This document shows positions 10,333 through 49,223 of a DNA stretch of 64,000 nt, piece after piece. The DNA is from Vicinamibacterales bacterium (lineage in GTDB: Bacteria > Acidobacteriota > Vicinamibacteria > Vicinamibacterales > 2-12-FULL-66-21). The stretch is taken from the NCBI GenBank assembly GCA_035463475.1, contig DATHTE010000123.1, positions 91,775-155,774 of the forward strand, read 5' to 3'. The notes below the pieces were generated by a model. The model saw only the letters and a list, made by a program, of their open reading frames with translations, was not told the origin of the DNA and did no database searches. The translations under genes and the position numbers were made by a program. The number at the start of each line of letters is the position of its first letter. Within the stretch, counting starts at the first letter, position 1.

Positions 10333-12024
10333 CTAGAAATGGCCGAGCCGCGTGATGCCCTCGCCTTCGACGCAATCGTACGCGCTCCCGGAGCGAAGCG
10401 ACTTGTACTCCTCCGTCCTGCCGCTCGGCCAGATGAGATGCACGCGGTCCACGACGTCCTGCCGGCCGAGGCCGAAGGTGACCGGCAACTCTGACTGCGA
10501 CAGGTAACTCGATCCGCACTTCACCATCCGCGTCTGCGTCGTCCCACCGTGCTCAATCCTCACCGTCGCGCCGATGCCGTCCCGGTTGGACCGTGTTCCT
10601 CGCAGCCGGAACCGGATCGAACGTCGCGCTGACGGGTGATCCGCGCGGAACAGCTGCGCCGGTCCGTTGTTGGCGGTCAGCAGCAGGTCGAGGTCGCCGT
10701 CGCGATCGAAATCGCCGCACGCCAGGCCGCGGCCGACCTTCGGCGTGACGAAGGAGGCGCCGGCCGCTGCGGCGACGTCCTCGAAATGGCCGCCGCGGTT
10801 GAGGAACAGCTGCGGCGGCTGCGCGTAGCCGACCGGGCCGCGCATTTCGCGCAGCGGCTCGTCGATGTGCCCGTTCGCCACCACGAGGTCGAGCCTGCCG
10901 TCCAGGTCCATGTCGGCGAAGACGCACCCGAAGCCGAGCGTGTGTCGCGACGCCGTCCCGACGCCGGCCCGGATCGCGACATCTTCGAACCGGCCCGGCC
11001 GGACCTCACGGTACAGCCCCATCATCTCGTTCTCGAAATTCGTGATCGCCAGGCCGAAACGGCCGGAGTTGTCGAAGTCCCCAACGTCAACGCCCATTCC
11101 GGCCCGCGCCTTGCCGTCGGCGCTGAAGGCCACGCCCGCGTCGAGCGCCACGTCGCGGAAGGTCCCGTTGCGCAGGTTGCGATACAGCTTGTTCGGCTGC
11201 GTGTCGTTCGCGACCAGGAGGTCGGGCCAGCCGTCGACGTCGTAGTCGAACATCGCGACGCCGAGCGACTTCGAGCTGGTGTCGAAGATCCCGCTCGTCG
11301 CGGTGACGTCCTCGAACGTGCCGTCGCCGCGGTTGCGGAACAGCCAGCACGTATCGCCGCGGTACGCTTCGGGTGTGCAGTAGGACTTGCGCTGGCCGTT
11401 CGCGCTGCAGAAGACGTCGTGCTCGGGCGACCACTTCACGTAATTACAGACGAAGAGGTCGAGCCGCCCGTCACGGTCGTAGTCGAACCACAGCGCCGAC
11501 GTGCTGAGGGCGTGCCGTCCGCCGAGCCCGCTCCGCTCGGTCACCTCCACGAAGGTGCCACGTCCGGTGTTGCGGAAGAGGCGGTTCTGGCCGACGCACG
11601 TGATCAGCAGATCGGGAAAACCGTCGTTGTCGTAGTCGGCTGCGGCGACGCCGAGCCCGTACGTTTCCACGTCGAGGCCGGCGCGCCGTGTCACGTCCGT
11701 GAACGTGCCGTTGCGATTGTTGTGAAACAGCCGCGGGGTCGATCGTCGCCGCTTGTGCCCCGGCCAGTCGCATCCGTTCACGAGGAGGATGTCCGTCCAG
11801 CCGTCGGCGTCGTAATCGATGAACGCGCATCCGGAGCCGAGCGTTTCGGGCAGCAGCTTTCCGCCGTATGCCCCGTTGTTGTGGCGGAACGGCACGTGGG
11901 CTCTCGCCGTGACATCGACGAGGCGCACGCCCGGCTCGGCGGGCTGCGAAGCGGCCGCGGGAGGGCGGATCGCGCCGGCAAGGCCCGCCGCCCCCATCGC
12001 CCGGATGAACTCGCGCCGGTTCAT
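10333..12024 (-). CDS. CRTAC1-family protein (FG-GAP/VCBS repeats + ASPIC/UnbV C-terminal domain), Tat signal
   Basis: MNRREFIRAMGAAGLAGA (twin-arginine signal). Repeated DYDxDGxxDL..xN.....L[FY]RN.G.GTFxDV units. C-terminal NRDGIGATVRIEHGG...SSYLSQSELPVTFGLG...IWPSG. Confidence 0.9.
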   Translation of the reverse strand: MNRREFIRAMGAAGLAGAIRPPAAASQPAEPGVRLVDVTARAHVPFRHNNGAYGGKLLPETLGSGCAFIDYDADGWTDILLVNGCDWPGHKRRRSTPRLFHNNRNGTFTDVTRRAGLDVETYGLGVAAADYDNDGFPDLLITCVGQNRLFRNTGRGTFVEVTERSGLGGRHALSTSALWFDYDRDGRLDLFVCNYVKWSPEHDVFCSANGQRKSYCTPEAYRGDTCWLFRNRGDGTFEDVTATSGIFDTSSKSLGVAMFDYDVDGWPDLLVANDTQPNKLYRNLRNGTFRDVALDAGVAFSADGKARAGMGVDVGDFDNSGRFGLAITNFENEMMGLYREVRPGRFEDVAIRAGVGTASRHTLGFGCVFADMDLDGRLDLVVANGHIDEPLREMRGPVGYAQPPQLFLNRGGHFEDVAAAAGASFVTPKVGRGLACGDFDRDGDLDLLLTANNGPAQLFRADHPSARRSIRFRLRGTRSNRDGIGATVRIEHGGTTQTRMVKCGSSYLSQSELPVTFGLGRQDVVDRVHLIWPSGRTEEYKSLRSGSAYDCVEGEGITRLGHF

Positions 12025-12653
12025 CGGAGGTGGACGAGCCCGGACTGGATCGCGTACACCACCAGTTCAGCAGTCTTGTGGACGTCGAGCGCGTTCATGA
12101 TGTTGGCGCGGTGGACGGCGATTGTGTTCACGCTCAACGACAGGCGCGCGCCGATCTCCCGGTTGGAGAGCCCCTGGCAGATCAGCTCCAGCACCTGGAG
12201 CTCGCGCGCGGTCAGGGTGCGGGATCGGTCCCCCTTCCTGGGCGTGTCGGGGACGCTGAGTCCCGGGTCGAGAACCTGCTCCCCCGAGGCGACCTTCCGC
12301 ACCGCCGCGGGCAGATCCAGGTCGAGCGCGCTCTTCAGGATGTACCCGCGGGCGCCCGCGTCGAGCGCCTGCCGGACGAGCGTGCTCTCCGCGTGCATGC
12401 TCAGGATCAGGACGGCGATCCCGGGTGAGGCCGCGAGAATCTGGCGCATCGCCACCAGCCCGTTCACGCCGGGCATCGCGCAATCCATCACCACGACGCG
12501 GGGGGCGAGGCTGGCGGCCAGCGGCACCGCCTCGTCGCCGGTGCTCGCCTCGCCAACGACGACGATCCCGGGGTCATCTTCCAGGAGGCGGCGAAACCCG
12601 CGGCGGACGAGAACGTGATCGTCAACGAGAAGAACGGTAATCGCTTCGGTCAT
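12021..12653 (-). CDS. NarL/FixJ-family response regulator (REC + LuxR-type HTH)
   Basis: ATG at 12653. VLLVDDHVLVRRG...VVVMDCAMPGVNG (phospho-acceptor Asp region) and LTARELQVLELICQGLSNREIGARLSLSVNTIAVHRANIM (LuxR HTH). ATGA overlaps at both ends (12650-12653 and 12021-12024). Confidence 0.95.
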   Translation of the reverse strand: MTEAITVLLVDDHVLVRRGFRRLLEDDPGIVVVGEASTGDEAVPLAASLAPRVVVMDCAMPGVNGLVAMRQILAASPGIAVLILSMHAESTLVRQALDAGARGYILKSALDLDLPAAVRKVASGEQVLDPGLSVPDTPRKGDRSRTLTARELQVLELICQGLSNREIGARLSLSVNTIAVHRANIMNALDVHKTAELVVYAIQSGLVHLR

Positions 12654-13987
12654 ACCCCTTGTGCGTTGGCCGGGACGCGTAGCCGGACCAGCGTGCCGCC
12701 CCCGGGCGGTGTCGCGAACTCGATTGTGCCGCCGACCAGCTCGGCGCGCTCGCGCATCGACACCATGCCGAGGCCGCGCCGATCGGGCGAACCGTTCAGA
12801 CCGGCCCCGTGGTCCTCGACGTCCAGCTCGAGGGTGCCGTTGACGGCGCGGAGGCGCACCGCCGCCTCTGCCGCGCCAGAGTGGTGCGCCACGTTGCGCA
12901 ACGCCTCCTGGAGGATGCGGTACACGTGGATGCCGGTTTCCTTCTGGACGCGCACGGGAGGTCCCGACCTCTCGAACGAGACCGTGATGCCAAGCTGGCG
13001 CTTCACGTTCGACATATACCACTCGACCGCCTCGTCCAGCCCCGCGTCGTCGAGAATCGAGGGGTGCAGGGCCTGCGAGAGACTGCGCACGTGGTCCAGC
13101 GTGGTCTGCGCGATCTCGGAGACCTCCCGCAGCTCGGCGCGCAAAGGGGACGCCTCGGGCGCGTGATTGCCGGCACGCCGCAGCATTGAACCCATCGCGG
13201 TGAGCATCTGCCCGAACTCGTCGTGCAGCTCGCGCGCGAGGGCGCGCAAGGTGGCTTCCCGGGCCGCAATGAGCTGCTGCGCGAGCTCGCGCCGCCGCTC
13301 CGACAGCGTTCCGATCTCCGCGAACAGTCGGCGGTTGGCGCGAATGACCGAGGCACTGGCCAGGATGATCGCCACCAGCGTGGCGCCCAGGAATAGGTAC
13401 ACCTGTCGCTGGACGTCGCTGTAGATGCCCTGCACCTGGAGCGCCATCTGCTGCTCGCTCTCGTTGTTCTCGACGAGAAGGCGGGCCACGGTGGTGGCAA
13501 GCGCCGCCTGTCGCGCAACGAGGGACAGCCGGATCTGCGCGCGAGCCTCGTCCTCTTGGCCGTCTCGCGCCATCGCGAACATGCGATCCACGGCGTCCCA
13601 GAACTGCGTCACCGAGTTGCCCAGGAACTCGCGCTGGCCGGGGCTTCGGCGGTGCATCGCCAGCGCTTCCTCGCGTCGCAGCGCGTCAGCCAGGTCCAGC
13701 CGGATGCGGTCGAGCTGCGAGCTCCACGCCGTGAGCGGGTATCGCCCCTCGGTGTCGATCATGTCGCGCATCGCAAGCGCAAGGAGGTTCAGGTTGTTCT
13801 GGATGCGCAGCAACTGGAGCGAGTCCTTGCGGCTTCGCTCGGCGAAATCGGTCTGGAGCGCCCGCAGCCGGGCGATCTGCTCCGTGATGTACCACGAGTA
13901 GGCCAACACGGCAGCAAGCGTGATGAGTAGCCCGATGACGAGCCCGATTGTCGGCGAGCGGCCATGCCCGCGCGATGGTGCCTCCAT
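12650..13987 (-). CDS. Sensor histidine kinase (periplasmic helical sensor, HisKA_3 + HATPase_c; NarX/DegS type)
   Basis: Two TM helices flank a roughly 160-aa helical sensor. ELHDEFGQMLTAM is the H-box of HisKA_3. LQEALRNVAHHSGA (N box), DHGAGL and GLGMVSMRERAELVGG (G boxes). Confidence 0.9.
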   Translation of the reverse strand: MEAPSRGHGRSPTIGLVIGLLITLAAVLAYSWYITEQIARLRALQTDFAERSRKDSLQLLRIQNNLNLLALAMRDMIDTEGRYPLTAWSSQLDRIRLDLADALRREEALAMHRRSPGQREFLGNSVTQFWDAVDRMFAMARDGQEDEARAQIRLSLVARQAALATTVARLLVENNESEQQMALQVQGIYSDVQRQVYLFLGATLVAIILASASVIRANRRLFAEIGTLSERRRELAQQLIAAREATLRALARELHDEFGQMLTAMGSMLRRAGNHAPEASPLRAELREVSEIAQTTLDHVRSLSQALHPSILDDAGLDEAVEWYMSNVKRQLGITVSFERSGPPVRVQKETGIHVYRILQEALRNVAHHSGAAEAAVRLRAVNGTLELDVEDHGAGLNGSPDRRGLGMVSMRERAELVGGTIEFATPPGGGTLVRLRVPANAQGV

Positions 13988-13989
13988 AA

Positions 13990-14031
13990 TTGATCGCCCG
14001 CAGGTTGATCGCCCGCAGGGGCACCTATACT
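13990..14031. promoter_or_regulatory. Perfect 15-bp tandem direct repeat (TTGATCGCCCGCAGG x2) plus a TATACT box, in a 54-bp divergent intergenic region
   Basis: 13990-14004 and 14005-14019 are identical. TATACT lies at 14026-14031, 10 nt before the KS ATG (14042). The region lies between the kinase start (13987, minus) and the KS operon start. Confidence 0.6.
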
Positions 14032-14041
14032 ATTCCGGCTC

Positions 14042-15262
14042 ATGGATGCACGTCCACGCGTCGTGATCACGGGAATCGGGGTCGTCACCTCGATTGGCAC
14101 CGGCGTCGGGCCGTTCTGGCAGGCGCTTCTCGCCGGCTCGTGCGGCATCGGCCCGGTCGCTTCGTTCGACACGACCCGGCACGCCGCGCACATCGGCGGG
14201 GAGGTGAAGGGCTTCGATCCCTCGAAGTTCCTTCGGCGCCTCGCGCCCACGTCAATGGGGCGTGCGTCCCAGATGGCAATCGCGGCGGCGCGGCTTGCCC
14301 TCGAGGACGCCGGCTTCGCCAATGGGGGCCCGTATCCCGCGGGAATCGGGGTCTCGCTCGGGACGACGTCGGGCGAGCCCACCCTGATCGAGCGGTTCAA
14401 CGAACTGGAGGTCGCCGGGACACGCGAGGCGATCGGCGCGGAGTTCATCGAAAAATATCCGTGTCATACGATCGCGGCGCACGTGGCGTCCGAACTCAGC
14501 TTCACCGGACCCAACCTCGTCATTCCCACGGCCTGTGCCGCGGGAAACTACGCCCTCGCCTTCGCCTCCGACGCCATCCGCGCCGGAACGGTGGACGTGA
14601 TGCTTGCCGGCGGCTCCGACTGCTTCTCCCGGATCACATACACTGGCTTCTCGCGACTGGGCGCGATCGCGCCGGAACGCTGCCAGCCGTTCGACCGGAA
14701 CCGGAAGGGGATGGTGCCCGGCGAGGGGGCGGCGGTGCTGGTGCTGGAGCGGTTCGACCGGGCCGTCGCGCGAGGGGCGCGGATCTATGCGGAGCTGGCC
14801 GGCTACGGGCTGACGTGCGACGCGAACCACATGACCGCGCCGCAGGGGGACGGCGCCGTCCGCGCGATGCAGCTGGCGATGGCGGATGCGGGCGTCGAGC
14901 CTCACGAGGTCAGCTACATCAGCGCTCACGGGACCGGAACGGCCGTGAACGACCGCGTCGAGACGGCGGCGGTCAAGCAGGCGTTCGGTGGCGCGGCGCC
15001 GCACGTGCCAATAAGCTCCATCAAGTCCATGCTCGGGCACACGATGGGGGCCGCGTCGGCCATCGAAGCGGCGGCGTGCGTCCTCGCGGTGTACGATGGG
15101 ATGTTGCCGCCGACGATCAACTACGAAACGCCGGATCCCCAGTGTGACCTCGACTACGTTCCCAACGAGGCGCGGCGTCAACCGGTGGACGTCGCCATGA
15201 ACAACGCCTACGCGTTCGGGGGGAACAACGCCTCGGTGATTGTGCGAGCGTGCCGGCCGTGA
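14042..15262 (+). CDS. Beta-ketoacyl-ACP synthase (KAS II / FabF-like) with intact Cys-His-His triad
   Basis: VVITGIGVVTSIG; GPNLVIPTACAAGNYA (active-site Cys); YISAHGTGTAVND (His); SIKSMLGHTMGAAS (His); NAYAFGGNNASVIV. Confidence 0.95.
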   Translation: MDARPRVVITGIGVVTSIGTGVGPFWQALLAGSCGIGPVASFDTTRHAAHIGGEVKGFDPSKFLRRLAPTSMGRASQMAIAAARLALEDAGFANGGPYPAGIGVSLGTTSGEPTLIERFNELEVAGTREAIGAEFIEKYPCHTIAAHVASELSFTGPNLVIPTACAAGNYALAFASDAIRAGTVDVMLAGGSDCFSRITYTGFSRLGAIAPERCQPFDRNRKGMVPGEGAAVLVLERFDRAVARGARIYAELAGYGLTCDANHMTAPQGDGAVRAMQLAMADAGVEPHEVSYISAHGTGTAVNDRVETAAVKQAFGGAAPHVPISSIKSMLGHTMGAASAIEAAACVLAVYDGMLPPTINYETPDPQCDLDYVPNEARRQPVDVAMNNAYAFGGNNASVIVRACRP

Positions 15263-16485
15263 ACGCGTGCAGGAGCGTCGTGATCACCGGCATGGGGGCC
15301 ATCTGCGCCCTCGGCGACCGGCTCGACCAGGTTTTTGCCGCGCTTTGCGAAGGAGCGCGGCCGTTCGCGTCTCCGACCCTGTTCCCGCCCGACGCGGCGC
15401 CGGGACATCTTGCCGCGGAAGTGCGCGAGTTCACGCCCGAGCGCTATCTGCGCCCGGGCAACATCCGGCCGCTCGATCGGACCGGGCGTCTCGCGCTCGT
15501 CGGCGTGGAGCTCGCGCTGGCGGACAGCGGCTGGTCGATCGAGCTCCGCAAGACGCGCGACGTCGGCCTCGTCTGGGGCACGATGCTCTCCGGCGTGCAC
15601 ACGATCGGCGAGTTCGACCGCCGCGCCCTGCAGGCCGGCCCCGAATACGCGAGCGCGCTCGACTTTTCGAACACCGTGCTGAACGCGGCCGGCGGCCAGG
15701 TCGCGATCTGGCAGCAGCTTCGCGGCATCAACTCGACCACGGCCGGCGGCGCCGCGTCCGGCGTGCTGGCGCTCGGCTACGCGGCGCAGCTGATTCGGAC
15801 CGGCCGGGCGGACGTGCTGCTGGCGGGCGGCGCCGAGGAGCTTTCGTTCGAGTCGTTCCTCGGCTTCGCGCGCGCCGGCTGGCTCGCGTGCCAGCATGAC
15901 GGCGTCGAGGCATGCGCCGTCCCGTTCGACGCCACCCGCAACGGCGCGGTGCTCGGCGAAGGGGCGGCCTTCCTCGTGCTCGAAGCGGAGCAGACGGCCG
16001 TGGAACGCGGGGCGCGGATCATCGGGCGGGTCCTCGGCAGCGCCAACGGTTACGATCCCGGCGCCCGGACGCGCGGCGCCGAACAGGGGAAGCCCCTCGC
16101 CGACACGATTGCGCGGGCGCTCCGCGACAGCGACACCGAGGCGCGCGCCATCGGCGTCGTCTCCGCGTCGGCGCATGGCAGTCCGGTGCTCGACCGGCGC
16201 GAAGCTGCCGGCATCGAAGCGGCGCTCGGCGCAAGGACGCCGGTGACGGCGATCAAAGCGATGACCGGTGAAACGCTCGGCGCCTCCGGTCCGCTGCAGG
16301 CGATCGTGGCGATCGAGGCGATGCGCGCGGGACGGCTGCCGGGAATCGCGGGCCTCGTCACGCCGGATCCCGCGGTCCGTCTCGACATCGCCGCCGCCAC
16401 GCGGCCGCTCGATGCCTCGCGCGCGCTCGTGACCGCGCTCACGCCAGAGGGCAACTGCGCGGCCCTGGTGCTTCAGGTCGGCTGA
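15250..16485 (+). CDS. Ketosynthase-fold partner lacking the catalytic Cys and second His (chain-length-factor-like)
   Basis: It has the KS fold (VVITGMGAICALG, LLAGGAEE, VLGEGAAFLVLE). The Cys position reads INSTTAGGAASG (Gly) and the GHT motif reads AIKAMTGETLGASG (Glu). It overlaps the upstream KS by 13 nt. Confidence 0.85.
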   Translation: MPAVNACRSVVITGMGAICALGDRLDQVFAALCEGARPFASPTLFPPDAAPGHLAAEVREFTPERYLRPGNIRPLDRTGRLALVGVELALADSGWSIELRKTRDVGLVWGTMLSGVHTIGEFDRRALQAGPEYASALDFSNTVLNAAGGQVAIWQQLRGINSTTAGGAASGVLALGYAAQLIRTGRADVLLAGGAEELSFESFLGFARAGWLACQHDGVEACAVPFDATRNGAVLGEGAAFLVLEAEQTAVERGARIIGRVLGSANGYDPGARTRGAEQGKPLADTIARALRDSDTEARAIGVVSASAHGSPVLDRREAAGIEAALGARTPVTAIKAMTGETLGASGPLQAIVAIEAMRAGRLPGIAGLVTPDPAVRLDIAAATRPLDASRALVTALTPEGNCAALVLQVG

Positions 16486-17723
16486 TGGCGCACAACCCCA
16501 AGGTCGAGGGCCCGCATCCCACCGCCCCGCCTGCGGCCGGACTTCCTCTCGTGCCGCGGTTCAGCGCCCAGGGCTACAGCCAGGAAGAGGTGCGGCAGCG
16601 GCGAGCGTGGGTCCAGGACCAGGCCGGAGTGGAGCTTCCGCTCGTCGCATCGTGCGCGATTCCGACCGAGCAGATGCGCGGCAACATCGAGAACCCGATC
16701 GGCGCGGTGCAGATGCCGCTCGGCATCGCGGGGCCGCTGCTCGTGCACGGCGAGCACGCGCGCGGCATGTTTTACGTGCCGATGGCGACCACCGAAGGAG
16801 CGCTCGTCCGGTCCTACGAGCGCGGCATGGTCATGCTCACGCGCGCCGGCGGTGTCACGGTCCGCGTGTTCGCGGACGAGAACCTCGTCTCGCCGATCTT
16901 CACGTTCGAGTCGGTCGCGGAGGCGCACCGCTTCGTCGCGGAGCTGCCGCGGCACTTCGATTCGCTCCGCGCCGAGGCCGAGTCCACGACCCGGCACGGC
17001 CGCCTCCTGCGCGTCGAGCCGCGCCCCTCCGGCCGGGCGGTCATCGTCAACTTCTACTACCACACCGCCGACGCCCAGGGCATGAACATGATCGTCAAGG
17101 CCACCGAGCACGCGGCCGCATGGCTCGTGGCGCGCGGCGTGGCGCCGCGCTTCAGGGTGTTCAGCGGTCTCAGCAGCGAGAAGCGGGCGAGCGGGTTCCT
17201 GCTAGGCGGCGGGAAGGGGAAGCGCGTCGTCGCGGGGGCCCGCATTCCGGCGGGCGTGCTGCAGGCGTACATGCGCGTCGCGCCGCAGGAGATGGCGGCC
17301 GTCTGGCACGACACGGTCATCGGCCATCTGCAGGCCGGCGCGATCGGTTACAACGGGCACTATGCCAACGGCCTCGCTGCCATCTTCATCGCGTGCGGCC
17401 AGGACGTGGCCAACGTCGCGAACGCGGCGGTCGGCATCACCGACTACGAAGTGACGGCCGAGGGGGACCTGCACGCGAGCGTCACGTTGCCGTCGCTGAC
17501 GGTCGCCACCGTGGGAGGGGGGACCGCGCTGGGCACCAGCCGGGAGTGCCTCGGCATCCTGGGCTGCGCAGGCGCGGGGCACGCGCGGAAATTTGCCGAG
17601 ATCGTCGCGGCCGCCTTGCTCGGCGGCGAGCTGTCGATGGCCGGCGCGATCGCGTCCGGTGAGTTCGTCGCCGCGCACGAAACGTACGGACGCAATCGCC
17701 CTCCAGGCGATGGCCGGCCCTGA
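16485..17723 (+). CDS. HMG-CoA reductase-fold enzyme (class I-like catalytic domain)
   Basis: ENPIGAVQMPLGIAGPLLVHG, PMATTEGALVRS, DAQGMNM, TVATVGGGT, and LGGELSMAGAIASGEFVAAHE, which aligns to the ...GELSLMAALAAGHLVKSH C-terminal catalytic-His segment. The start shares a base with the upstream stop (TGATG). Confidence 0.9.
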   Translation: MAHNPKVEGPHPTAPPAAGLPLVPRFSAQGYSQEEVRQRRAWVQDQAGVELPLVASCAIPTEQMRGNIENPIGAVQMPLGIAGPLLVHGEHARGMFYVPMATTEGALVRSYERGMVMLTRAGGVTVRVFADENLVSPIFTFESVAEAHRFVAELPRHFDSLRAEAESTTRHGRLLRVEPRPSGRAVIVNFYYHTADAQGMNMIVKATEHAAAWLVARGVAPRFRVFSGLSSEKRASGFLLGGGKGKRVVAGARIPAGVLQAYMRVAPQEMAAVWHDTVIGHLQAGAIGYNGHYANGLAAIFIACGQDVANVANAAVGITDYEVTAEGDLHASVTLPSLTVATVGGGTALGTSRECLGILGCAGAGHARKFAEIVAAALLGGELSMAGAIASGEFVAAHETYGRNRPPGDGRP

Positions 17724-17744
17724 CCCGGGCGCACGCAGTCGTAG

Positions 17745-19247
17745 ATGAGAGCGTTCACGGCCCTTCGCGACGATCCACGTCCCGAGTACGACGTCGTGGT
17801 GATCGGCGCGGGAATCGGCGGCCTGATTTGCGCGGCGCTCCTCGCGCGCGGCGGCGCGCGCGTGCTGCTCGTGGAGCAGCACTACATGGTCGGCGGGTAC
17901 TGCAGCACGTTCCGCCGCGGCCAGTTCATCTTCGACGCGGCGACGCATTTCTACCCGCTCCTCGGCAACCCCATCACCATCACGGGCTCGCTGCTCGAAC
18001 GCCTCGGGTCGCGGACGCGCTGGGTGAAGATGGATCCCGTCGATCATTTCCATTTCCCGGACGGCAGCCGCTTCTCGGTGTCCGCCGACTTCGACGAGTA
18101 CGCCGACGAGCTGAAGGCGATGTTCCCCCACGAGGCGGAGGCGCTCGATCGCTTCTTCGCCGTCGCGCGAGACGGGTACCTCTACGGGCTCCTGCACTAC
18201 TTCCGCAGGCGGCAGCACGAACGTTTCGAGCGGCTGCGGCGCCTGACGCTGCGCGACGTCCTCAATCGCGAGTTTCACGACCGGAAGCTCAAACTCCTCC
18301 TCGCGGCCGACTGCGCGCACTGGGGGTCCCCGCCGTCGCGGACGTCGTTCGTGTTCGACTCGATGCTGCGCCTGTCCTACTTCCTCGGCAACTACTACCC
18401 GGAAGGTGGATCGCAGGTGTTTGCCGACGATCTCGCGCGGATCGTCCAGGAGCACGGCGGCGACATCCTCATGCGCTCGATGGTCGAACGGATCGTCGTC
18501 GAGCGTGGCGCGGCGGTGGGCGTGGATGTGGCCACCGGGCTCGGGCCGCGCCGCCACACCGTCCGCGTGCGCGCGGGCCACGTGGTGTCGAACGGTGACC
18601 TCGTGCGGACCCTCGAGCAGCTTCTGGGCCCCGAGACCATCGGTGAAGAGCCGATCCGCGCGGCACGGCGCCTTCGCCCGACCAGCCCGTGCTTCCTCGT
18701 GCATCTCGGCCTTCGCGACATCTCTCTCGACGCGGTCCGCGCGGCGTGCGGCTATCACTGGCGCTCGTGGGAGCCTGACGAGGTCGTGCGGGAGGCGTTC
18801 AAGGTGTTCGTGCCGACCATGTACGAACCGGCAATGGCCCCGACAGGCGGCCAGGTCGTGATCCTGCAGCGCATCATGGAACTGCGATACGACGAAGTCC
18901 CCGACTGGGCCGAGCACAAGGCCCGCATCGAGGAGGACCTGATGGGGCGCCTGGAGTCCGTCATGCCGGGCGTGTCGGAGCACATCGTCTTACGGCACAG
19001 CGCTTCCGCGCTGACGTCGTGGCGTTTCACGCTCAACCATCACGGGGCGATGCTTGGGTGGGAGATGTCGCCGGACCAGTTGGGGGAGGGGCGTCCCTCC
19101 ACGGAAGGCCCGGTGCGCAACCTTTTCTTCACAGGGCACTGGACCCGACCGGGTGGGGGCATTACCCCGGTTATTGTCTCGGCAATGGATGTGGCGGAGG
19201 CCATTCTGGGCACTACGGCTCAGCTTAGACCGGCGATTTTCGACTAG
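17745..19247 (+). CDS. Phytoene-desaturase-family (CrtI / RetSat-like) FAD-dependent oxidoreductase
   Basis: YDVVVIGAGIGGLICAALLARGGARVLLVEQHYMVGGYCSTF (dinucleotide fold + GG motif) and a C-terminal NLFFTGHWTRPGGGI motif typical of the CrtI family. Confidence 0.9.
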   Translation: MRAFTALRDDPRPEYDVVVIGAGIGGLICAALLARGGARVLLVEQHYMVGGYCSTFRRGQFIFDAATHFYPLLGNPITITGSLLERLGSRTRWVKMDPVDHFHFPDGSRFSVSADFDEYADELKAMFPHEAEALDRFFAVARDGYLYGLLHYFRRRQHERFERLRRLTLRDVLNREFHDRKLKLLLAADCAHWGSPPSRTSFVFDSMLRLSYFLGNYYPEGGSQVFADDLARIVQEHGGDILMRSMVERIVVERGAAVGVDVATGLGPRRHTVRVRAGHVVSNGDLVRTLEQLLGPETIGEEPIRAARRLRPTSPCFLVHLGLRDISLDAVRAACGYHWRSWEPDEVVREAFKVFVPTMYEPAMAPTGGQVVILQRIMELRYDEVPDWAEHKARIEEDLMGRLESVMPGVSEHIVLRHSASALTSWRFTLNHHGAMLGWEMSPDQLGEGRPSTEGPVRNLFFTGHWTRPGGGITPVIVSAMDVAEAILGTTAQLRPAIFD

Positions 19248-19312
19248 TCTTTTTCGACTAGCTGTGTAAGAATCCGCAAACTTTTTCGCCGGTCGCCGGC
19301 ACGGGAGCATCC

Positions 19313-19576
19313 ATGATCGAGGAGAATCAGATTCGCGAGACGATACGTGAGAGCGTCCACCGCATCACCGGGATTGCGCCGGCCGAGATCCACGAGACCT
19401 CGAGCTACCGCGAGGATCTCGGGCTCGACTCTCTCTCGGCGCTCGAAGTGGTGATCGACCTGGAGTACGCATTCAAGATCAAGGTTCCGGAAGAGCGAAT
19501 CCAGACGATCAGGAACGTGCAGGATACGATCGACGTGGTGCAGGAATACCTTTCGGCACCCGCTCGGACGGCGTAG
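19313..19576 (+). CDS. Acyl carrier protein
   Basis: 87 aa with EDLGLDSLSALEVVIDLE, containing the DSL phosphopantetheine attachment motif. Confidence 0.9.
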   Translation: MIEENQIRETIRESVHRITGIAPAEIHETSSYREDLGLDSLSALEVVIDLEYAFKIKVPEERIQTIRNVQDTIDVVQEYLSAPARTA

Positions 19577-19634
19577 CCGGGGGTTGGGTGTTGGTCGCGC
19601 GCGCGTGCCCGGCACCTGCTGTTTCGCATCGAAC

Positions 19635-19895
19635 ATTCCGCCGGGGTCTTTAGGGGGAATTCCGGCGAGCTTCGCCTTCAGTCATCCGCCGGGAAAGGTA
19701 TCCGCGAGCACTGGTTTCGCCTTACCGCCGGGTTGGTACGGGCGAGGACTTGGCTTCGCCGTTCCGCAAGGGGTGGGCATCGCCGAGGAATGGCGCCGGC
19801 TTCGGGTATTCCGCGGGTCAGGTCCCGGCGAGTCTGGCGTCGCCTCCGGCATTCCCAGGGGTTCGGAATTTGTTTCGGCATTCGGCATTCGGCAT
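19635..19895. repeat. Array of about 5 degenerate 39-48-bp tandem repeats ending in (TCGGCAT)x3, in an intra-operon spacer
   Basis: Units start at 19638, 19686, 19725, 19764 and 19811. Each has the pattern CCGCCGGG - N6-15 - (C/T)CGGCGAG - N1-12 - TTCGCC(T/G). A tandem TCGGCAT heptamer x3 lies at about 19875-19895. GC3 of the overlapping ORF is poor. Confidence 0.55.
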
Positions 19896-19913
19896 TAACA
19901 AGGAGTCAGTAGT

Positions 19914-21783: not shown

Positions 21784-22242
21784 GTGGAGATGCGCGAAGT
21801 GGCCAAGTCGATCCTCGGGCTCTCGTGGGCAGTGTCGCTGTTTGGCTTTCAGCAGCTGTCGAAGGCGATGACACCGGCGACGACCCAGCCGTGTGACGTG
21901 ACCGCGACGGAGGTCGATGAAGTGTCGCGCGCGGTGCAGAGTCGGCTCTCCGACTCCGCCGCGCAGCAGTTCCGCGCCGGCGACGAGTGGCAGCGCCGCA
22001 TGGTGGACATCATGTTCGACATGGCGTCGCTGCGGGCGGTCGAGCCGCGCAAGATGGTCGAGGTTCTCGACCCGCGGACGCTGATTGAGACTGCCGATCC
22101 GCGCGCGATGATCGAAACGAGCGTGACCGTGATCCAGAAGAGCATCGACACCGCCGTGAACGCCATGCGGCAGACCGCCGACACGGCCATGGACCTGACC
22201 AAGCGGGCCGTCGATTCGGTCAGGCCATCGGCGACAGCGTAG
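21784..22242 (+). CDS. Hypothetical protein (152 aa); stand-alone copy of the N-terminal module of the 24044 and 33420 proteins
   Basis: GTG at 21784 (AAAGG upstream). EVAKSILGLSWAVSLFGFQQLSKAMTP aligns with DLLKSTLTLPWAISMFGVQQLTNLVTP (24044 protein). ...WQRRMVDIMFDM aligns with ...MQRAMVDLMMF. Confidence 0.6.
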   Translation: MEMREVAKSILGLSWAVSLFGFQQLSKAMTPATTQPCDVTATEVDEVSRAVQSRLSDSAAQQFRAGDEWQRRMVDIMFDMASLRAVEPRKMVEVLDPRTLIETADPRAMIETSVTVIQKSIDTAVNAMRQTADTAMDLTKRAVDSVRPSATA

Positions 22243-22299
22243 TACGACCCTGCGGCGCCGCACGGCGCATGGTCGCACGGGGGGCCGTGCGGAGATCGG

Positions 22300-24021
22300 A
22301 TGGAGACTGCGGTTCACCACGGCGGCTACGTGACGCGGCACCGTGCCGCGCTGGCTGCCGCGCGGCCGATTCTGCGGCGGCTGCCCCACATCCTCCGGGT
22401 GGTGATCGCTCACGGGATCGCGAATGTCGTCGCGTCCCGCCCCCGCCTGCGATGGCTCGCGCGCTGGGCGCCGCTCGCCCGGCTCACCGGTCCGGAGCGC
22501 TTCCGGCGCCTGTTCGAGGACCTCGGCGGGAGCTTCGTCAAGTTCGGGCAGATGCTCGCGCTCCAGCCCGACATCGTCTCCCTCGAGTACTGCGACGAGC
22601 TGTTCAACCTACTCGATCGCATGGCGCCGTTCCCCTACGAGTTCGTCGAGCAGGTCTTCCGGGAGGAGCTGGGCCAGTCACCCTCCGACCTCTTCGATCA
22701 CTTCGATCCCGTGCCGCTGGCGACCGCGTCAATCGGGCAGGTTCATGCCGCGGTCCTGCACGGGCGCAAGGTCGCCGTGAAGGTGCAGCGCCCGGGCGTC
22801 GAGGCCGACTTCGACGGCGACCTCCGCCTGCTCGTGCTCGCCATGCGGTTCATCCGGCGCCTGCAGGTGAGGTCGCTCTACTGGGTGCTCGATCCCGGCG
22901 GTGAGTTCATCTCCTGGACGCGCGAGGAGCTCGACTACCGACGCGAGGCGCGGTACGCCGAGCGGCTGCGGCGCAACGCGGAGTTCAACCCCCAGGAGCG
23001 TGTGCCGGCCATCGTATGGGAGCTGACGACCCGCCGCACGCTGGTGATGGAGTTCATGTCGGGGATGACCGTCCTCGACTACCTGCGCGCCCTCACGACC
23101 GGCGACGAGTGGACGACGTACCGGCTGCGAGCCGACGGGTTCGACCCGAACCTCTTCGCGCGGCACATCATCGACAACTTTCTCGGCGATGCATTTCAGT
23201 ACGGCGTCTTTCATGCCGACCTGCATCCTGCGAACCTTCTCGTGCTGCCGCAGAACGTGGTCGGGTACGTGGACTTCGGCATCACCGGCGTGCTGAGCCG
23301 CTACTCGCGGCGCCACCTGGTCGAGATGACGCTCGCCTACACGCGCGCGGACGTCCGCGGCATGGCCGACGCGTACTTCAAGCTCGTGACGTATCGATCC
23401 GATGCCGACCCCGATCTGTTCCGGCGGCTGCTGGCCGAGACGTCGCAGGACTGGTATGAAGAGGGCGAGGCGGAGACGGTCTTCAGGAAGAACTTCACGC
23501 TGGTGATGCTGGACTTCCTGACGCTGTCGCGCAAGGCGGGTATCGGGCCCGAGCGGGATGTGGTTAAATACATCCGCTCGACCATCGCGGCAGACGGGCT
23601 CATCACGCGGTTTGCGCCCGGGTTCAGCGTGGGACGCCACCTCGAGGACGTCTGCCAGCAATGGATCGCTCGCGAAGCGCGCCGAGTCGCGTTCAGCTAC
23701 AACACGTTGACGGCCCTCGTCGCCTCCGGCGGCCGGCTGATCGAAGACGGGCCCGCGCGCGCCGCCTCCGTGCTGCGGCGGGTCGCCGAGGGCGAAGCCC
23801 TCGGTCGCGTCGACATCACGACAATCGCCCGGCGTGACGAACGCGTGCGCAAGCGCACGATTCGGCTCGCGGGAATCGCCGTGGCGTTCACGGCGTTGCT
23901 CGAGCTCACGGGCGCGGCGCCGGAGCTGGGGCTGAATCTCTTTACCGTCGAAGCGGCACTCGTGGCGGGTGCGTTGCTCCTGCTCGCAGACTCTCTGAGA
24001 GAACTTGCTTTTGCCGGCTGA
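22300..24021 (+). CDS. ABC1/UbiB-family atypical protein kinase (canonical motifs), two C-terminal TM helices
   Basis: GGSFVKFGQMLALQPDIV (KxGQ motif), ASIGQVHAAVL.GRKVAVKVQRPG (catalytic Lys), FHADLHPANLLV, and YVDFGITG (DFG). GGAG lies upstream of ATG 22300. Confidence 0.9.
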   Translation: METAVHHGGYVTRHRAALAAARPILRRLPHILRVVIAHGIANVVASRPRLRWLARWAPLARLTGPERFRRLFEDLGGSFVKFGQMLALQPDIVSLEYCDELFNLLDRMAPFPYEFVEQVFREELGQSPSDLFDHFDPVPLATASIGQVHAAVLHGRKVAVKVQRPGVEADFDGDLRLLVLAMRFIRRLQVRSLYWVLDPGGEFISWTREELDYRREARYAERLRRNAEFNPQERVPAIVWELTTRRTLVMEFMSGMTVLDYLRALTTGDEWTTYRLRADGFDPNLFARHIIDNFLGDAFQYGVFHADLHPANLLVLPQNVVGYVDFGITGVLSRYSRRHLVEMTLAYTRADVRGMADAYFKLVTYRSDADPDLFRRLLAETSQDWYEEGEAETVFRKNFTLVMLDFLTLSRKAGIGPERDVVKYIRSTIAADGLITRFAPGFSVGRHLEDVCQQWIAREARRVAFSYNTLTALVASGGRLIEDGPARAASVLRRVAEGEALGRVDITTIARRDERVRKRTIRLAGIAVAFTALLELTGAAPELGLNLFTVEAALVAGALLLLADSLRELAFAG

Positions 24022-24043
24022 CCCTCGGCAGAAAGGCCCGGTC

Positions 24044-25429
24044 ATGGAAACCACGACGCAATCATCGACGTTTCGCGACCTCCTGAAGTCGACGTTGACC
24101 CTGCCCTGGGCGATTTCGATGTTTGGCGTCCAGCAGCTCACCAACCTCGTGACGCCGCCGCCGGCCGGGCGCGTGGCGGGCGCGACCTCCGCGCTCGACA
24201 CCGTCAGCGACGTGACCGCGAAACAGCTCGACGGCTGGCTGAAACAGACCTACCAGCTCGGCACCGGCATGCAGCGTGCGATGGTGGACCTCATGATGTT
24301 CCGCACGCCCGACATCGATCAGAGTACGCTCATGCGCATCGCCGCCGAGATGCAGGATGGCCCACTGTTCGAGGCGGTCGTGAAGTACGGGCTCCCGCCG
24401 GTCGGCTGGCTCGACTCGTGGCTCGTGTCGCGGCGCGACGCGCCGGCCGTCACGCAGGAGTTCACGAACAAGCTCTACATCATCTCCCTCGTGACCCACG
24501 TGCATTCCGAGCTCGGGCTCAGCTCGAAGACCGTCGACCCGCTCGGCGTGCTGGTCGACAAGGTGGCGGAAATGCCGACGTTTCCCCGCGTGTGGGCCAC
24601 CGAAGGGCTTGGCAACTGGTTTGGCGATCTGGCGATGGAGCGGGCGGCCGACGGCCCGGATCCCACTGGTCTGCTCACCGACCCGCAATACGACTCGCTC
24701 CCGGCGTGGAGCATGACGATGCTGCACGCAGGCATCGGCATGTCGTTCGGCAAGGCGATCCTCAAGAAGCTCGAGCCGACGAGCTCGCCGGAAACCATCC
24801 GGGGAGAGCTGGCCCGCTTCCTGAGGTTGTGTCGTGAATCGTCGCGTCCGGGATACGCCGGCGCCGCGCTCGAGTCGCTTGGCCTCGCGACCCGGTCGCT
24901 GTATCCAAACCTGCTGCCGGTCCTCGACCGCGAGATGCCGTACGTCGATCCCGATCTGCAAAGCTACTACTGGCACGGCGCTGGCCGCGCGATGTACTTC
25001 GAGCCGGCGGGCTGGCTGCCCTCGGTCAACGCGCCGTGGCGCGTCATCAGGCGGCTCGACGCGGAGACGCCGCACGACCTCGGTCGCAAGAACATCCTCT
25101 CTGGCATCGGGTGGGCGCTCTCGGTCGTCAACATGCGTCATCCGGTGGTGATGGAGACGTTCCTGCGCCATCACGCGGCGCTGGCGAGGACCGAGGACGC
25201 GTTCACCAACGGCGTCGTCTCGTCGCTGATGATGCGGTTCGACACGACGCGCGACGACGCGCACATCTCCCCCTACATTCGCTACGAACCGTCTGATCCG
25301 GAGGTCGCGTCGGCGTGGCGGACGCTGATTACCGAGCCGTGCGAGCACGCCCTGCGCGACACGTACGGCAACCTGCTGCGGACCAACTCGCTCGAGCAGC
25401 TGTTCCACTACCGCCCGGCGGGAAGCTAG
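24044..25429 (+). CDS. Hypothetical protein: shared N-module + DUF1702-like (enediyne UnbL-type) C-terminal domain
   Basis: ATG at 24044. The C-domain has MLHAGIGMSFG, GYAGAALESLGLA, SYYWHGAGRAMYF and GIGWALSVVN. This is the periodic HxGxG / aromatic-EGxG pattern I associate with DUF1702. It is paralogous to the 33420 protein. Confidence 0.65.
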   Translation: METTTQSSTFRDLLKSTLTLPWAISMFGVQQLTNLVTPPPAGRVAGATSALDTVSDVTAKQLDGWLKQTYQLGTGMQRAMVDLMMFRTPDIDQSTLMRIAAEMQDGPLFEAVVKYGLPPVGWLDSWLVSRRDAPAVTQEFTNKLYIISLVTHVHSELGLSSKTVDPLGVLVDKVAEMPTFPRVWATEGLGNWFGDLAMERAADGPDPTGLLTDPQYDSLPAWSMTMLHAGIGMSFGKAILKKLEPTSSPETIRGELARFLRLCRESSRPGYAGAALESLGLATRSLYPNLLPVLDREMPYVDPDLQSYYWHGAGRAMYFEPAGWLPSVNAPWRVIRRLDAETPHDLGRKNILSGIGWALSVVNMRHPVVMETFLRHHAALARTEDAFTNGVVSSLMMRFDTTRDDAHISPYIRYEPSDPEVASAWRTLITEPCEHALRDTYGNLLRTNSLEQLFHYRPAGS

Positions 25430-25445: not shown

Positions 25446-27029
25446 ATGGCCACGTCACTGGTAGCGCGCAGCCCCGCGTCCGGCCGCGACGGCCGGCGGA
25501 AGCAGGTCGAGACGGTACTCAACGCGCTCGGTCTCCCCGTTCCCGAGCGCCGCTCGCCGCCACCCGAGGGGCGCCTCGGGGCGGACGAGGACTACGGGCG
25601 CCGGCTGCGCGAGGCGCTCACCGATCTCGGCCCGGTCTTCGCCGGCTTCGGCCGGTACCTCGGGTCGCGCGCCGATCTGGCGCCGCGGCGCACGCGCGCC
25701 GAACTGGCGACGATCCCGGACGAGGGGCAGGCGCTGCCGTTCGCCTCGGTCGCGGCACTGGTGCGCGCGCAGCTCGGGGCGCGGCCCGAGCGGCTGTTCT
25801 TCGAGTTCCATCGGGATCCCGTCGCGGTCGGCTCGTGGACGCAGTCGCATCTGGCGTGGCTCGCCCCAGGGGTGCCGGCGCTGGTGACCATCGTCCGTCC
25901 CGATGCCGCCGACGAGCTCGATATCGACATCCCGCTGCTGCCTCTTCTCGCGCCGTGGATCGACGTGCCTGCCGGCCTTCTTGCCGCCGCGGTCGCGGAC
26001 TACGAGTTGACGGTGCGGCGACGCCTGGATCAGAAGCACCAGGCTGCCTCGCTGACCAGTCTCGCGGCCGACGCCCGCAGCGGCGGAGGATTCGACGCGC
26101 CTGCCTGCTACCGCGATCACTGCGCGCCGAACGTCCTGACGGTCGAGCGGCTCGTCGGAGAGCCCCTCGACGCGCAGCCGCGTGGGGCTGAGGCGCTGGC
26201 GCGCCGGGTAACGGCCGCCTGGCTGCGACAGGCCTTCGCCGGCAACGTGGTGCCCTATGACTTCGGGCCGCGCGACCTCGTCGTGATCGACGAGCGCCTT
26301 GTGCTCACGGGGGGCGCTCTCGAGCCCCACTCGTCGGTCGAACGTGCGCGCTTCGCGGCGTACCTGAGCGCCGTCGCCTCCGACGATCCCGACGCGGCCG
26401 CCAACTGGATTGTCGAGGGGGCCAGTCCATCTCCCGCCGTCGAGTCGAGGCTTCGGCGCCTGTTGCGGCAGGCGGTCCCGTTCCGCGAAGGCGAGTGGAG
26501 CGGCGATGATCGCCTCGTGCAGCACGTGCTCGTGCAGTGGCGTGTCGCGCGCAACGCGGGGTGGCCCGTCTCACCCCATCATCTCCACCTGTACCGCGGC
26601 CTCCAGGCGGTGGCGCAGATTGCGCATGACCTCGCGCCTGACGTGGACACGCTGCTCCGGGCGCTCGAGGACGAACGCCTGCGAATCGGCCTGTCGCAGG
26701 CGGGCGAGTTGCTCAGCCCGCGCTACGCCGTGGCGACCCTCGACCGCGCGATCCAGGAACTCGCCGATCTTCCACAGAAGTTCGATGACGTGCTGACGAT
26801 GGCGTCCCAGGGGCGATTGCGGATGAACCTGCAGGTACCCGAGGCGGAAGAGAACGAGCGCGTCCGCAACCGCACCGTGCTGCTCGTGACCACGCTGGTC
26901 GCCTTCGCGGCGGTCGCCACCATCGCGCGCCACCTTGCGCCCGCATTCGGCGTCGGCATCGAGCGCGCCGGCGCGATCATCCTGCTGCTGGTGGGCGGGT
27001 GGCTGCTGTTCGCCGCGTCCCGGTTGTGA
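25446..27029 (+). CDS. ABC1/UbiB-like pseudokinase (catalytic motifs degenerate), two C-terminal TM helices
   Basis: LGPVFAGFGRYLGSRADLAP replaces the KxGQ motif. ALVTIVRPD replaces VAVKVQRPG. PYDFGPRDLVV replaces HADLHPANLLV. No DFG is present. It has the same length and architecture as the 45925..47505 paralog. Confidence 0.75.
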   Translation: MATSLVARSPASGRDGRRKQVETVLNALGLPVPERRSPPPEGRLGADEDYGRRLREALTDLGPVFAGFGRYLGSRADLAPRRTRAELATIPDEGQALPFASVAALVRAQLGARPERLFFEFHRDPVAVGSWTQSHLAWLAPGVPALVTIVRPDAADELDIDIPLLPLLAPWIDVPAGLLAAAVADYELTVRRRLDQKHQAASLTSLAADARSGGGFDAPACYRDHCAPNVLTVERLVGEPLDAQPRGAEALARRVTAAWLRQAFAGNVVPYDFGPRDLVVIDERLVLTGGALEPHSSVERARFAAYLSAVASDDPDAAANWIVEGASPSPAVESRLRRLLRQAVPFREGEWSGDDRLVQHVLVQWRVARNAGWPVSPHHLHLYRGLQAVAQIAHDLAPDVDTLLRALEDERLRIGLSQAGELLSPRYAVATLDRAIQELADLPQKFDDVLTMASQGRLRMNLQVPEAEENERVRNRTVLLVTTLVAFAAVATIARHLAPAFGVGIERAGAIILLLVGGWLLFAASRL

Positions 27030-44319: not shown

Positions 44320-44326
44320 GGGCGGT

Positions 44327-49193: not shown

Positions 49194-49223
49194 CGTTGTT
49201 TGTGCACCGCTCCCGCGCAAGGA

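Follow-up and report, generated by a model that had tools for sequence, protein, structure and literature searches.

A candidate acyl-thioester reductase with the HMG-CoA reductase fold in a conserved carrier-protein and ketosynthase cassette of Acidobacteriota

The fold of class-I hydroxymethylglutaryl-CoA (HMG-CoA) reductase (HMGR) is reused by the fatty acyl reductase FcrA, a class-I HMGR homologue of haloarchaea and many bacteria that was described from Natronomonas pharaonis and Ca. Promineifilum breve (Grossi et al. 2025, ISME J, PMC11948995). FcrA reduces acyl-CoA of C14 and longer to the fatty alcohol with NADPH, does not reduce HMG-CoA and is insensitive to simvastatin; it carries the reduction through to the end, and free aldehyde is not taken up (PMC11948995). 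Here, we describe a gene for a reductase with this fold from a stretch of 64,000 nucleotides of a Vicinamibacterales bacterium (phylum Acidobacteriota; contig DATHTE010000123.1, positions 91,775 to 155,774), which we call the window. The gene lies in an operon that also encodes an acyl carrier protein (ACP), a ketosynthase (KS1), a partner of the chain-length-factor (CLF) type (KS2) and a CrtI-like oxidoreductase. From comparisons of sequence and gene order we consider it likely that its product is an HMGR-derived, NADPH-dependent reductase of acyl thioesters other than HMG-CoA, of the FcrA kind, and not an enzyme of the mevalonate pathway. Reuse of the HMGR fold by a fatty acyl reductase is already known and the principle is, therefore, not categorically new, since it was published in 2025 (PMC11948995).

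FcrA keeps the catalytic tetrad of HMGR; Ser684 (human numbering) is changed to Glu, a conserved Lys to small residues and Leu862 to a bulky residue. The FcrA clade is monophyletic and makes up 57-77% of the bacterial proteins that are called class-I HMGR. Its carriers do not have a mevalonate pathway, and some members have a fused ACP. The fcrA genes adjoin PlsC-like genes, and Grossi et al. suggested roles in ether lipids (PMC11948995).

The second system to which the locus has to be compared is "Cluster I" of anammox bacteria, which was proposed to be involved in ladderane synthesis (PMC2649909, PMC4790861). It encodes amxACP, amxFabZ, the pair amxFabF2/amxFabFmut, a homologue of phytoene dehydrogenase and a B12 radical SAM protein. 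The pair forms a heterodimer of the KS/CLF kind; it decarboxylates malonyl-ACP and has a preference for C6-C8 substrates, and the cluster was called unique to ladderane producers (preprint 10.64898/2026.05.19.726425). The CrtI-like homologues from Kuenenia did not complement CrtI (PMC4790861).

The reductase compared with class-I HMGR and FcrA

The open reading frame (ORF) of the reductase has a stop-free translation of 412 amino acids. The Pfam profile PF00368 (HMG-CoA_red) matches it end to end (residues 36-403, profile positions 2-368 of 368, E 1.9e-105), and among solved structures it is closest to 6hr7, an archaeal class-I enzyme from Methanothermococcus thermolithotrophicus (280.5 bits). 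The motifs ENxIG, TTEGxLV, DAxGMNM, TVGGGT and AAH, which had been read from the sequence in the original prediction, were all found in the translation, as IENPIG (68-73), TTEGALV (102-108), DAQGMNM, TVGGGT and VAAH (395-398). The NADPH motifs DAxGMNM and GTVGGGT are the same as in class-I HMGR. With the HMGR equivalog model of NCBIfam (TIGR00533) the reductase scores 322.7 bits, which is under the cut-off of 441.8. The ratio dN/dS against close relatives is 0.13-0.26.

The stop codon TGA of KS2 (16483-16485) and the ATG of the reductase (16485-16487) have one base in common in the sequence TGATG, exactly as had been claimed. The public gene call P0001 has 390 amino acids and starts with a GTG at V23, 66 nt downstream of this ATG. 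The leader of the reductase is only about 30 residues long and bears a motif, L-V-P-R-x-x-x-Q-G-Y, that is common to the different classes and that archaeal and eukaryotic HMGR lack. Because the GTG start removes part of this conserved motif, the ATG at 16485 is the likelier start as judged from the alignment.

For the active site, we aligned the reductase with HMGR from human (1DQ8), Arabidopsis (7ULI) and M. thermolithotrophicus (6HR7) and with the translated sequences of 79 relatives in public genomes; positions are given in human numbering. The catalytic residues Glu559, Lys691, Asp767 and His866 correspond to E104, K233, D307 and H398. This tetrad is invariant in 79/79 relatives, and the same holds for Asn755 and Ser565. 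A replacement of the catalytic His by Glu was considered and rejected: E393 is the counterpart of His861, a position that is Gln in Arabidopsis, and the histidine of the AAH segment, H398, is indeed the catalytic one, as the original prediction had it.

The residues that hold the HMG moiety are changed. In class-I enzymes the terminal carboxylate of HMG is bound by Lys735 through a salt bridge, and conserved polar contacts come from Arg590, Ser684, Asp690 and Lys692 (PMC9500038). Lys735 is D276 in the reductase (H, R, D, S or Q across the family) and Arg590 is V135 (Val or Ile in 78/79 relatives); Asp690 is Glu in all 79 relatives, Lys692 is Arg in 74 of them, and Leu862 is F394 in the reductase and Phe in 77. 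The canonical cis-loop SGNxCxDKK reads FSGLSSEKR (FSG..EKR in the family). Position 684 is Ser in a gapped and Phe in an ungapped alignment and never Glu or Asp. Apparently, the acyl pocket has lost the positive charges for the HMG carboxylate and gained hydrophobic residues. The claim that the HMGR domain is catalytically intact thus holds for the redox machinery with its tetrad and does not hold for the residues that bind HMG (R590, K735 and the cis-loop). The reductase shares with class-I HMGR the fold of the entire catalytic domain, the catalytic residues and the NADPH motifs; it differs in Lys735, Arg590 and the SGN-type cis-loop, which are kept in class-I HMGR, and it is coupled to genes of the fatty acid or polyketide type and has no mevalonate context. 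By these sequence features it is probably not an HMG-CoA reductase.

This is in line with its place in the superfamily. A HMMER search of 1.84 billion representatives gave 802 proteins at E<=1e-30. After clustering at 50%, the reductase family is one cluster (P0121, 62% identity) and the next matches are 45-50% identical. The canonical signature R590/S684/K735/L862 is present in only 5 of about 140 top representatives. A phylogeny against class-I and class-II HMGRs had been suggested as a check in the original prediction. In the neighbour-joining tree (bootstrap 100), the sequences with the canonical signature, including those from human, plants and archaea, are separated from all others with 97/100, and the reductase family falls on the non-canonical side of this split. 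It is monophyletic (100/100) and groups weakly (58-61/100) with a clade that likewise has a hydrophobic residue at position 590. The reductase family and the non-canonical clades have in common that one residue is deleted beside K735 and that the C-terminal tail reads H-E-x-x-G-R-N. The characterised FcrA sequences from N. pharaonis and Ca. Promineifilum are not in the tree and, therefore, the placement of the family relative to the FcrA clade is inferred from signatures.

These signatures are in part those of FcrA: the tetrad is kept, Lys735 is lost, position 862 is bulky, and the C-terminal tail as well as the deletion near K735 are found in both. Both are also linked to a PlsC-like acyltransferase, and carriers of FcrA are devoid of a mevalonate pathway, as the window is devoid of its genes. 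The reductase family is about 43% identical to representatives with the FcrA signature, forms its own clade and, unlike FcrA, has Glu at position 690 and Arg at 692. The ACP is encoded by a separate gene, whereas it is fused in some members of FcrA. The reductase, unlike FcrA, sits in a dedicated ACP/KS/CLF/CrtI-like cassette, which implies a substrate that is bound to the carrier and made by the cassette, and not bulk acyl-CoA.

That proteins of this fold can work on carrier-bound substrates is suggested by fusion proteins. P0152 and P0185 consist of AMP-binding, PP-binding and HMGR-like domains, and P0191 and P0236 have an additional APH/EcKL (ecdysteroid-kinase-like) domain. This adenylation-thiolation (A-T)-HMGR-like layout is, by its domain composition, direct evidence at the domain level for an HMGR fold predicted to act on pantetheine-tethered acyl groups. 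It mirrors the A-T-R layout of carboxylic acid reductases, which, like the terminal reductase (R) domains of nonribosomal peptide synthetases and polyketide synthases (PKS), follow the same logic of reductive release from the phosphopantetheine arm. R domains have the fold of short-chain dehydrogenases/reductases (SDR) and, unless they act a second time, their usual product is the aldehyde; the reductase of the window differs from A-T-R systems in having the HMGR fold and in being a separate protein. Other unannotated fusions were seen, in which an HMGR-like domain is followed by an APH kinase or by DUF3419 (BtaA-related) or preceded by PilZ or a hotdog thioesterase-like domain; HMGR-like fusion proteins were also noted under P0167, P0174, P0128, P0131 and P0124.

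The closest relatives of the gene are from metagenome-assembled genomes (MAGs) of Acidobacteriota of the order Vicinamibacterales from soil metagenomes (86% protein identity); the G+C content of the window is 64-74%. As stated in the original prediction, the window has no mevalonate genes: in Pfam scans of every ORF with coding-like composition in the 64 kb, HMG-CoA synthase, mevalonate kinase, phosphomevalonate kinase and decarboxylase were all missing, and the homologues of window genes that were mapped across 79 related loci did not include any of them. Genes of the methylerythritol phosphate (MEP) pathway are present in (almost) all acidobacterial genomes examined, including those of subdivision 6 (SD6) (Damsté et al., PMC5462960).

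The conserved cassette and anammox Cluster I

A scan of a genome collection gave the 79 loci. They span Vicinamibacteria, Blastocatellia/Pyrinomonadaceae, Thermoanaerobaculia, Holophagales and Bryobacteraceae and, outside the Acidobacteriota, MAGs of Latescibacterota, Poribacteria, Zixiibacteriota and Nitrospinota, five phyla in all. For the upstream KS 65 loci and for the downstream CrtI-like gene 76 loci had enough flanking sequence to be counted. In 53/65 loci the reductase is preceded on the same strand by a gene of the KS family whose end is no more than 400 nt away, and in 70/76 the start of a CrtI-like gene is at most 1.2 kb downstream. In 50 loci we found an ACP homologue; it follows the CrtI-like gene in Vicinamibacterales and immediately precedes KS1 in the other groups. 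KS, CLF and reductase keep their order from phylum to phylum. Based on these counts, the conserved unit consists of ACP, KS, CLF, reductase and CrtI-like enzyme, and its tightest pair is the reductase and the CrtI-like enzyme. Further downstream, the acyltransferase and then a UbiB kinase follow in most lineages; the phasin-like gene is syntenic in about 15 loci, the 474-residue protein in about 12, and the pair of halogenase-like protein and oxygenase is found in about 12.

In the window, the genes from KS1 through the acyltransferase are on one strand with overlaps or short gaps. The KS/ACP operon of the original prediction was thus found, with KS1 and KS2 upstream of the reductase and the ACP gene in the same operon. 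KS1 has the complete triad (Cys in PTACAAG, His in HGTGT and GHTMG). In KS2 the catalytic Cys is missing (TAGGAASG) and one His is replaced by Glu (GETLG), which is why we regard it as a CLF-type partner. An intact triad beside a mutated one matches the amxFabF-type pair of anammox bacteria by sequence, and KS1/KS2 are predicted to form a heterodimer of this type.

The similarity to Cluster I goes further. KS1 has its top match in the Protein Data Bank (PDB) with 9s5h_B (488.8 bits) and KS2 with 9s5h_C, the inactive anammox partner (193.4 bits). Chain B of 9s5h is 95% identical to anammox proteins of Brocadiales; by these 95%-identical proteins, and not by the text of the preprint, we infer that 9s5h and 9s5i belong to preprint 10.64898/2026.05.19.726425. 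In an anammox MAG (L080, 7194-13449), the chain B homologue is encoded with an ACP, a FabA/FabZ-type dehydratase, CLF, a CrtI-like oxidoreductase and a B12 radical SAM protein, which is the gene set of Cluster I. The CrtI-like protein of the window is 31% identical to its anammox counterpart (261 bits, vs 78.8 bits to CrtI 4dgk) and, judged by these scores, is of the subfamily of the "phytoene dehydrogenase homologue" of Cluster I; CLF and ACP are 31% and 32% identical to their anammox counterparts. The ACP-KS-CLF-CrtI-like module is homologous and has the same gene order in Cluster I and in the acidobacterial cassette, and the catalytic Cys of the CLF is lost in both. In contrast to Cluster I, the acidobacterial cassette has an HMGR-like reductase between CLF and the CrtI-like gene, whereas the FabZ-type dehydratase and the B12 radical SAM protein of Cluster I are missing. 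By this comparison, ladderanes would not be expected from the acidobacterial cassette.

Some loci deviate in ways that may be mentioned here. Four Thermoanaerobaculia MAGs (L055, L059, L070, L075) have a pair of HMGR-like genes in each locus; one belongs to a complete KS-CLF-reductase-CrtI-like cassette, and the other follows a lone KS, sometimes with the halogenase-like/oxygenase pair behind it. In a Holophagales MAG without adjacent KS/CLF genes (L054, 9302-9946), a SnoaL-like gene (polyketide-cyclase/NTF2 fold) is directly upstream of the HMGR-like gene. A type I PKS in the loci without KS was considered and rejected: the large upstream ORFs there encode FG-GAP/TPR/ASPIC proteins, a SnoaL-like protein, a Mur ligase and a multicopper oxidase.

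Proposed function and competing explanations

Since the tetrad is kept, the same four-electron reduction as in HMGR is expected, from a pantetheine thioester via a bound aldehyde to the primary alcohol. The fold, the residues, the synteny and the placement in the family are taken from the data, and from these we infer the substrate class, ACP rather than CoA as carrier, the order of the steps and the product. According to this model, the KS/CLF heterodimer would prime and elongate a chain on the dedicated ACP, as suggested by homology to the anammox pair. The CrtI-like flavoenzyme could conceivably modify the ACP-bound chain, most simply by desaturation. The reductase would then reduce the acyl-pantetheine thioester to the primary alcohol in two NADPH-dependent steps and thereby free the carrier; for this step we rely on the retained tetrad, the changed pocket, the biochemistry of FcrA, the fusions and the synteny. 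The alcohol would be used or esterified by the acyltransferase, which might build a lipid of the ester or ether type, with the UbiB kinases and the phasin-like protein as possible accessories. For an action of the reductase on the chain of the cassette's own ACP we see an even chance, and for any one specific end product a low chance at best. The proposal in the original prediction, that HMGR chemistry was recruited to release an acyl group as an alcohol, gains comparative support from the changes in the pocket, the synteny, the A-T-HMGR fusions and the acidobacterial MEP pathway, all of which would fit such a role. A 3-hydroxy-3-methyl-type intermediate, which had also been considered there, is without support because genes for HMG-synthase-type branching are absent.

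Several observations weigh against this picture. The hallmark of FcrA, Ser684 changed to Glu or Asp, is missing in the reductase (Ser or Phe); Arg590 is kept in FcrA and is Val or Ile in the reductase family; and the N-terminal Lad beta-domain, which is present in some FcrA members only, is missing. Because the change of Ser684 to an acidic residue and the Lad domain are missing and the family has changes of its own (R590V, D690E, K692R), the reductase is best called, from its signatures, an FcrA-like variant and not a demonstrated member of FcrA. The characterised FcrA takes acyl-CoA and not acyl-ACP. The operon has no ketoreductase, dehydratase or enoylreductase gene. In about 10/65 loci no KS gene adjoins the pair of reductase and CrtI-like gene, and therefore the reductase need not depend on the ACP system of the cassette. 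Finally, an expression search found the reductase sequence only in DNA runs from soil, with no RNA run among them.

Some of these points lead directly to another explanation, in which an FcrA-type reductase takes acyl-CoA from the cell's general pool to serve the synthesis of wax esters or ether lipids and the neighbouring ACP, KS and CLF make a different partner molecule. The only characterised relative does use acyl-CoA, some loci keep the reductase and the CrtI-like gene without adjacent KS/ACP genes, and the vicinity of fcrA to PlsC-like genes led Grossi et al. to suggest ether-lipid roles. However, the reductase is translationally coupled to the CLF by the TGATG overlap, the ACP in 50 loci and the fixed KS-CLF-reductase order speak for a common pathway, the A-T-HMGR-like fusions show that HMGR-like domains can take carrier-bound substrates, and the operon has no acyl-CoA ligase. 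We regard a function on the acyl-CoA pool as possible and unlikely.

Another redox reaction on the carrier-bound chain is also conceivable, either a two-electron reduction with release of the aldehyde or an oxidative, catabolic direction in which the cleavage oxygenase would take part. The reaction of HMGR can run both ways, and degradative HMGRs occur in some bacteria. Only the reductase family has D690E, K692R and the shortened cis-loop, an aldehyde-making oxygenase similar to apocarotenoid-15,15'-oxygenase (ACO-like) is often linked, and the NCBIfam family TIGR00532 bears the name "degradative". On the other hand, the His that protonates the thiolate and the Glu, Lys and Asp are all kept as in four-electron enzymes, FcrA does the full reduction without uptake of free aldehyde, and the KS/CLF/ACP context is biosynthetic, which makes this quite improbable. 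A genuine HMGR that provides mevalonate for isoprenoids or carotenoids, with the other pathway genes elsewhere in the genome, is very improbable: the full-length fold, the intact tetrad, the NADPH motifs and the CrtI-like, lycopene-cyclase-like and carotenoid-cleavage genes in the extended cluster would agree with it, but K735 and R590, ligands of HMG that are otherwise universally conserved, have been replaced together with much of the cis-loop, the TIGR00533 score and the position in the tree are not those of HMGR, the characterised non-canonical relative FcrA cannot reduce HMG-CoA, Acidobacteria have the MEP pathway (PMC5462960), mevalonate genes are found neither in the 64 kb nor among the mapped homologues of the 79 loci, and the CrtI-like enzyme is of the anammox type, whose Kuenenia homologues failed in CrtI complementation (PMC4790861).

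Neighbouring genes and what the locus may mean

The features of the window are listed in Table 1. The divergent histidine kinase has the same position and orientation in the Vicinamibacterales loci L001-L003, L006 and L007. Between its start (13987, minus strand) and the ATG of KS1 (14042) is a gap of 54 bp, most of which is occupied by two copies of TTGATCGCCCGCAGG, and a TATACT is found about 10 nt ahead of the ATG. By position, the repeat may be a candidate regulator-binding or promoter site and TATACT may be a near-leaderless promoter; a scan of 13900-22400 for promoters and terminators gave nothing above chance. The stretch downstream of the acyltransferase encodes two proteins without known function beside the kinases, the phasin-like, the halogenase-like and the oxygenase protein. 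The true start of the halogenase-like gene is probably 3' of 29155.

Table 1 Features of the reductase locus in the window.
Feature	Coordinates	Strand	Basis
LuxR/GerE-type response regulator (receiver + GerE helix-turn-helix), start uncertain	12021..12650	-	Response_reg 3.9e-24, GerE 3.4e-17 on ORF 12024-13022
HisKA_3/HATPase_c sensor histidine kinase, divergent from operon	12650..13987	-	Pfam
Exact tandem repeat, 2 x 15 bp TTGATCGCCCGCAGG	13990..14019	+	read from sequence
KS1, active FabF-type ketosynthase	14042..15262	+	Pfam ketoacyl-synt, Ketoacyl-synt_C
KS2, CLF-type partner	15250..16485	+	pairwise alignment to KS1
Class-I HMGR-fold reductase, FcrA-like	16485..17723	+	Pfam, alignment, tree
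CrtI-family (amine-oxidase fold) FAD oxidoreductase	17745..19247	+	Pfam + NCBIfam, below cut-offs
ACP, 87 aa, DSL phosphopantetheine site	19313..19576	+	PF00550, 46.4 bits
Pseudo-SDR + PlsC/LPLAT acyltransferase, 561 aa	19914..21599	+	PF01553, AlphaFold2, Foldseek
Small phasin-like protein, weak match	21784..22242	+	TIGR01841 2.2e-4, Phasin_2 1.1e-3
UbiB/ABC1 atypical kinase	22300..24021	+	Pfam ABC1 1.3e-59
Conserved protein, 474 aa, no assigned family	24005..25429	+	no Pfam/NCBIfam match
Second, divergent ABC1/UbiB-like kinase	25446..27029	+	Pfam ABC1 7.4e-19
Flavin-dependent halogenase/monooxygenase-like protein (accessory)	29155..31308	+	Trp_halogenase, FAD_binding_3; weak PDB halogenase matches
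Carotenoid-cleavage-oxygenase family, nearest apocarotenoid-15,15'-oxygenase (accessory)	31224..32738	+	RPE65 3.8e-99; PDB 5kja/2biw, 166 bits
FG-GAP/ASPIC-UnbV genes	10333-12024, 41959-44337, 49896-52268, 56459-58843, 58798-60570, 61191-62999, 62906-64000	-, -, +, +, +, +, +	

A third ABC1/UbiB atypical kinase is encoded at 47502-49232 on the minus strand, which brings the number of such kinases in the window to three. Together with the phasin-like protein, the nearby acyltransferase and the carotenoid-cleavage-type oxygenase, they are reminiscent of the proteins of plant plastoglobules. Some of the seven FG-GAP/ASPIC-UnbV (CRTAC1-like) genes have TPR partners. In most loci outside the Vicinamibacterales (L011-L068), one to three FG-GAP/ASPIC-UnbV genes either separate the CrtI-like gene from the acyltransferase or closely precede the reductase; their linkage to the cassette is conserved. 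A gene with FAD_binding_4/BBE domains (40574-42457) was considered as AGPS and rejected; its BBE domain is not the FAD-oxidase_C domain and it has no homologue in the related loci.

The acyltransferase has two parts. Its homologues are named "AGPAT/nucleoside-diphosphate-sugar epimerase" by the Joint Genome Institute (JGI), and its C-terminal half has LPLAT motifs. A sequence search against the PDB gave no match, and the fold of the N-terminal half (19914-20800) is seen only by AlphaFold2 (model confidence, pLDDT, 78) and Foldseek, as an extended-SDR fold with template-modelling (TM) scores of about 0.6-0.7 to epimerases. The glycine-rich NAD motif GxxGxxG is missing and YxxxK is replaced by an invariant W122...E126; because both motifs are missing, this domain is probably not a redox enzyme but a pseudo-enzyme fused to a PlsC-type transferase.

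A similar list of parts is known from the ElbD/MXAN_1675 ether-lipid systems of Myxococcus xanthus (Lorenzen et al. 2014, as reviewed in PMC9131029): a carrier, a thioester reductase, an NAD-epimerase-like protein or domain and a PlsC/GNPAT-like acyltransferase, as in the cassette. Elb-like clusters were reported in the same phyla (Acidobacteriota SD6, Poribacteria, Latescibacterota). The reductase of ElbD/MXAN_1675, which makes fatty aldehyde or alcohol, is of the fatty acyl reductase (FAR)/SDR type and not of the HMGR type. In further contrast to the cassette, the chain is loaded by an adenylating ligase and not made by KS/CLF, all activities are on one multidomain protein, and there is no CrtI-like enzyme. 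The likeness would thus be a parallel, with no evidence for homology of the reductases. An assignment of ElbB of Myxococcus as CrtI-like was dropped, since it is HAD-like according to the review (PMC9131029).

It is tempting to speculate, though still doubtful, that the cassette and the pseudo-SDR/PlsC acyltransferase form an undescribed lipid pathway in which a short- or medium-chain, possibly polyunsaturated acyl group on its own ACP is converted to the alcohol and then to an ether- or ester-linked lipid, and which is widespread in soil Acidobacteriota and in phyla of sponges and sediments. In the literature on HMGR with KS, CLF, ACP or phytoene desaturase nothing relevant was found, and neither Acidobacteria nor ketoacyl genes are mentioned in the supplement of the FcrA paper. 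We found no description of the reductase subfamily, of its fixed place in an ACP/KS/CLF/CrtI-like cassette across phyla or of the homology between this cassette and anammox Cluster I.

The label "hydroxymethylglutaryl-CoA reductase (NADPH)" is given automatically to this gene in thousands of proteins from soil metagenomes and wrongly suggests mevalonate metabolism in Acidobacteria. An acyl-thioester reductase would instead offer a testable candidate pathway for lipids derived from fatty alcohols in one of the most abundant phyla in soil. The enzymes of ether-lipid synthesis in Acidobacteriota are still debated; if the speculation holds true, the pathway could supply the alkyl (ether) chains of acidobacterial membrane lipids. 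The finding also extends the discovery of FcrA in 2025 from free acyl-CoA to what is apparently a system dedicated to a carrier protein. Moreover, the "ladderane" core of anammox bacteria is not confined to ladderane producers, which gives comparative leverage and possibly easier hosts: since the core is shared with Cluster I, work in a tractable host could reveal the function of that core.

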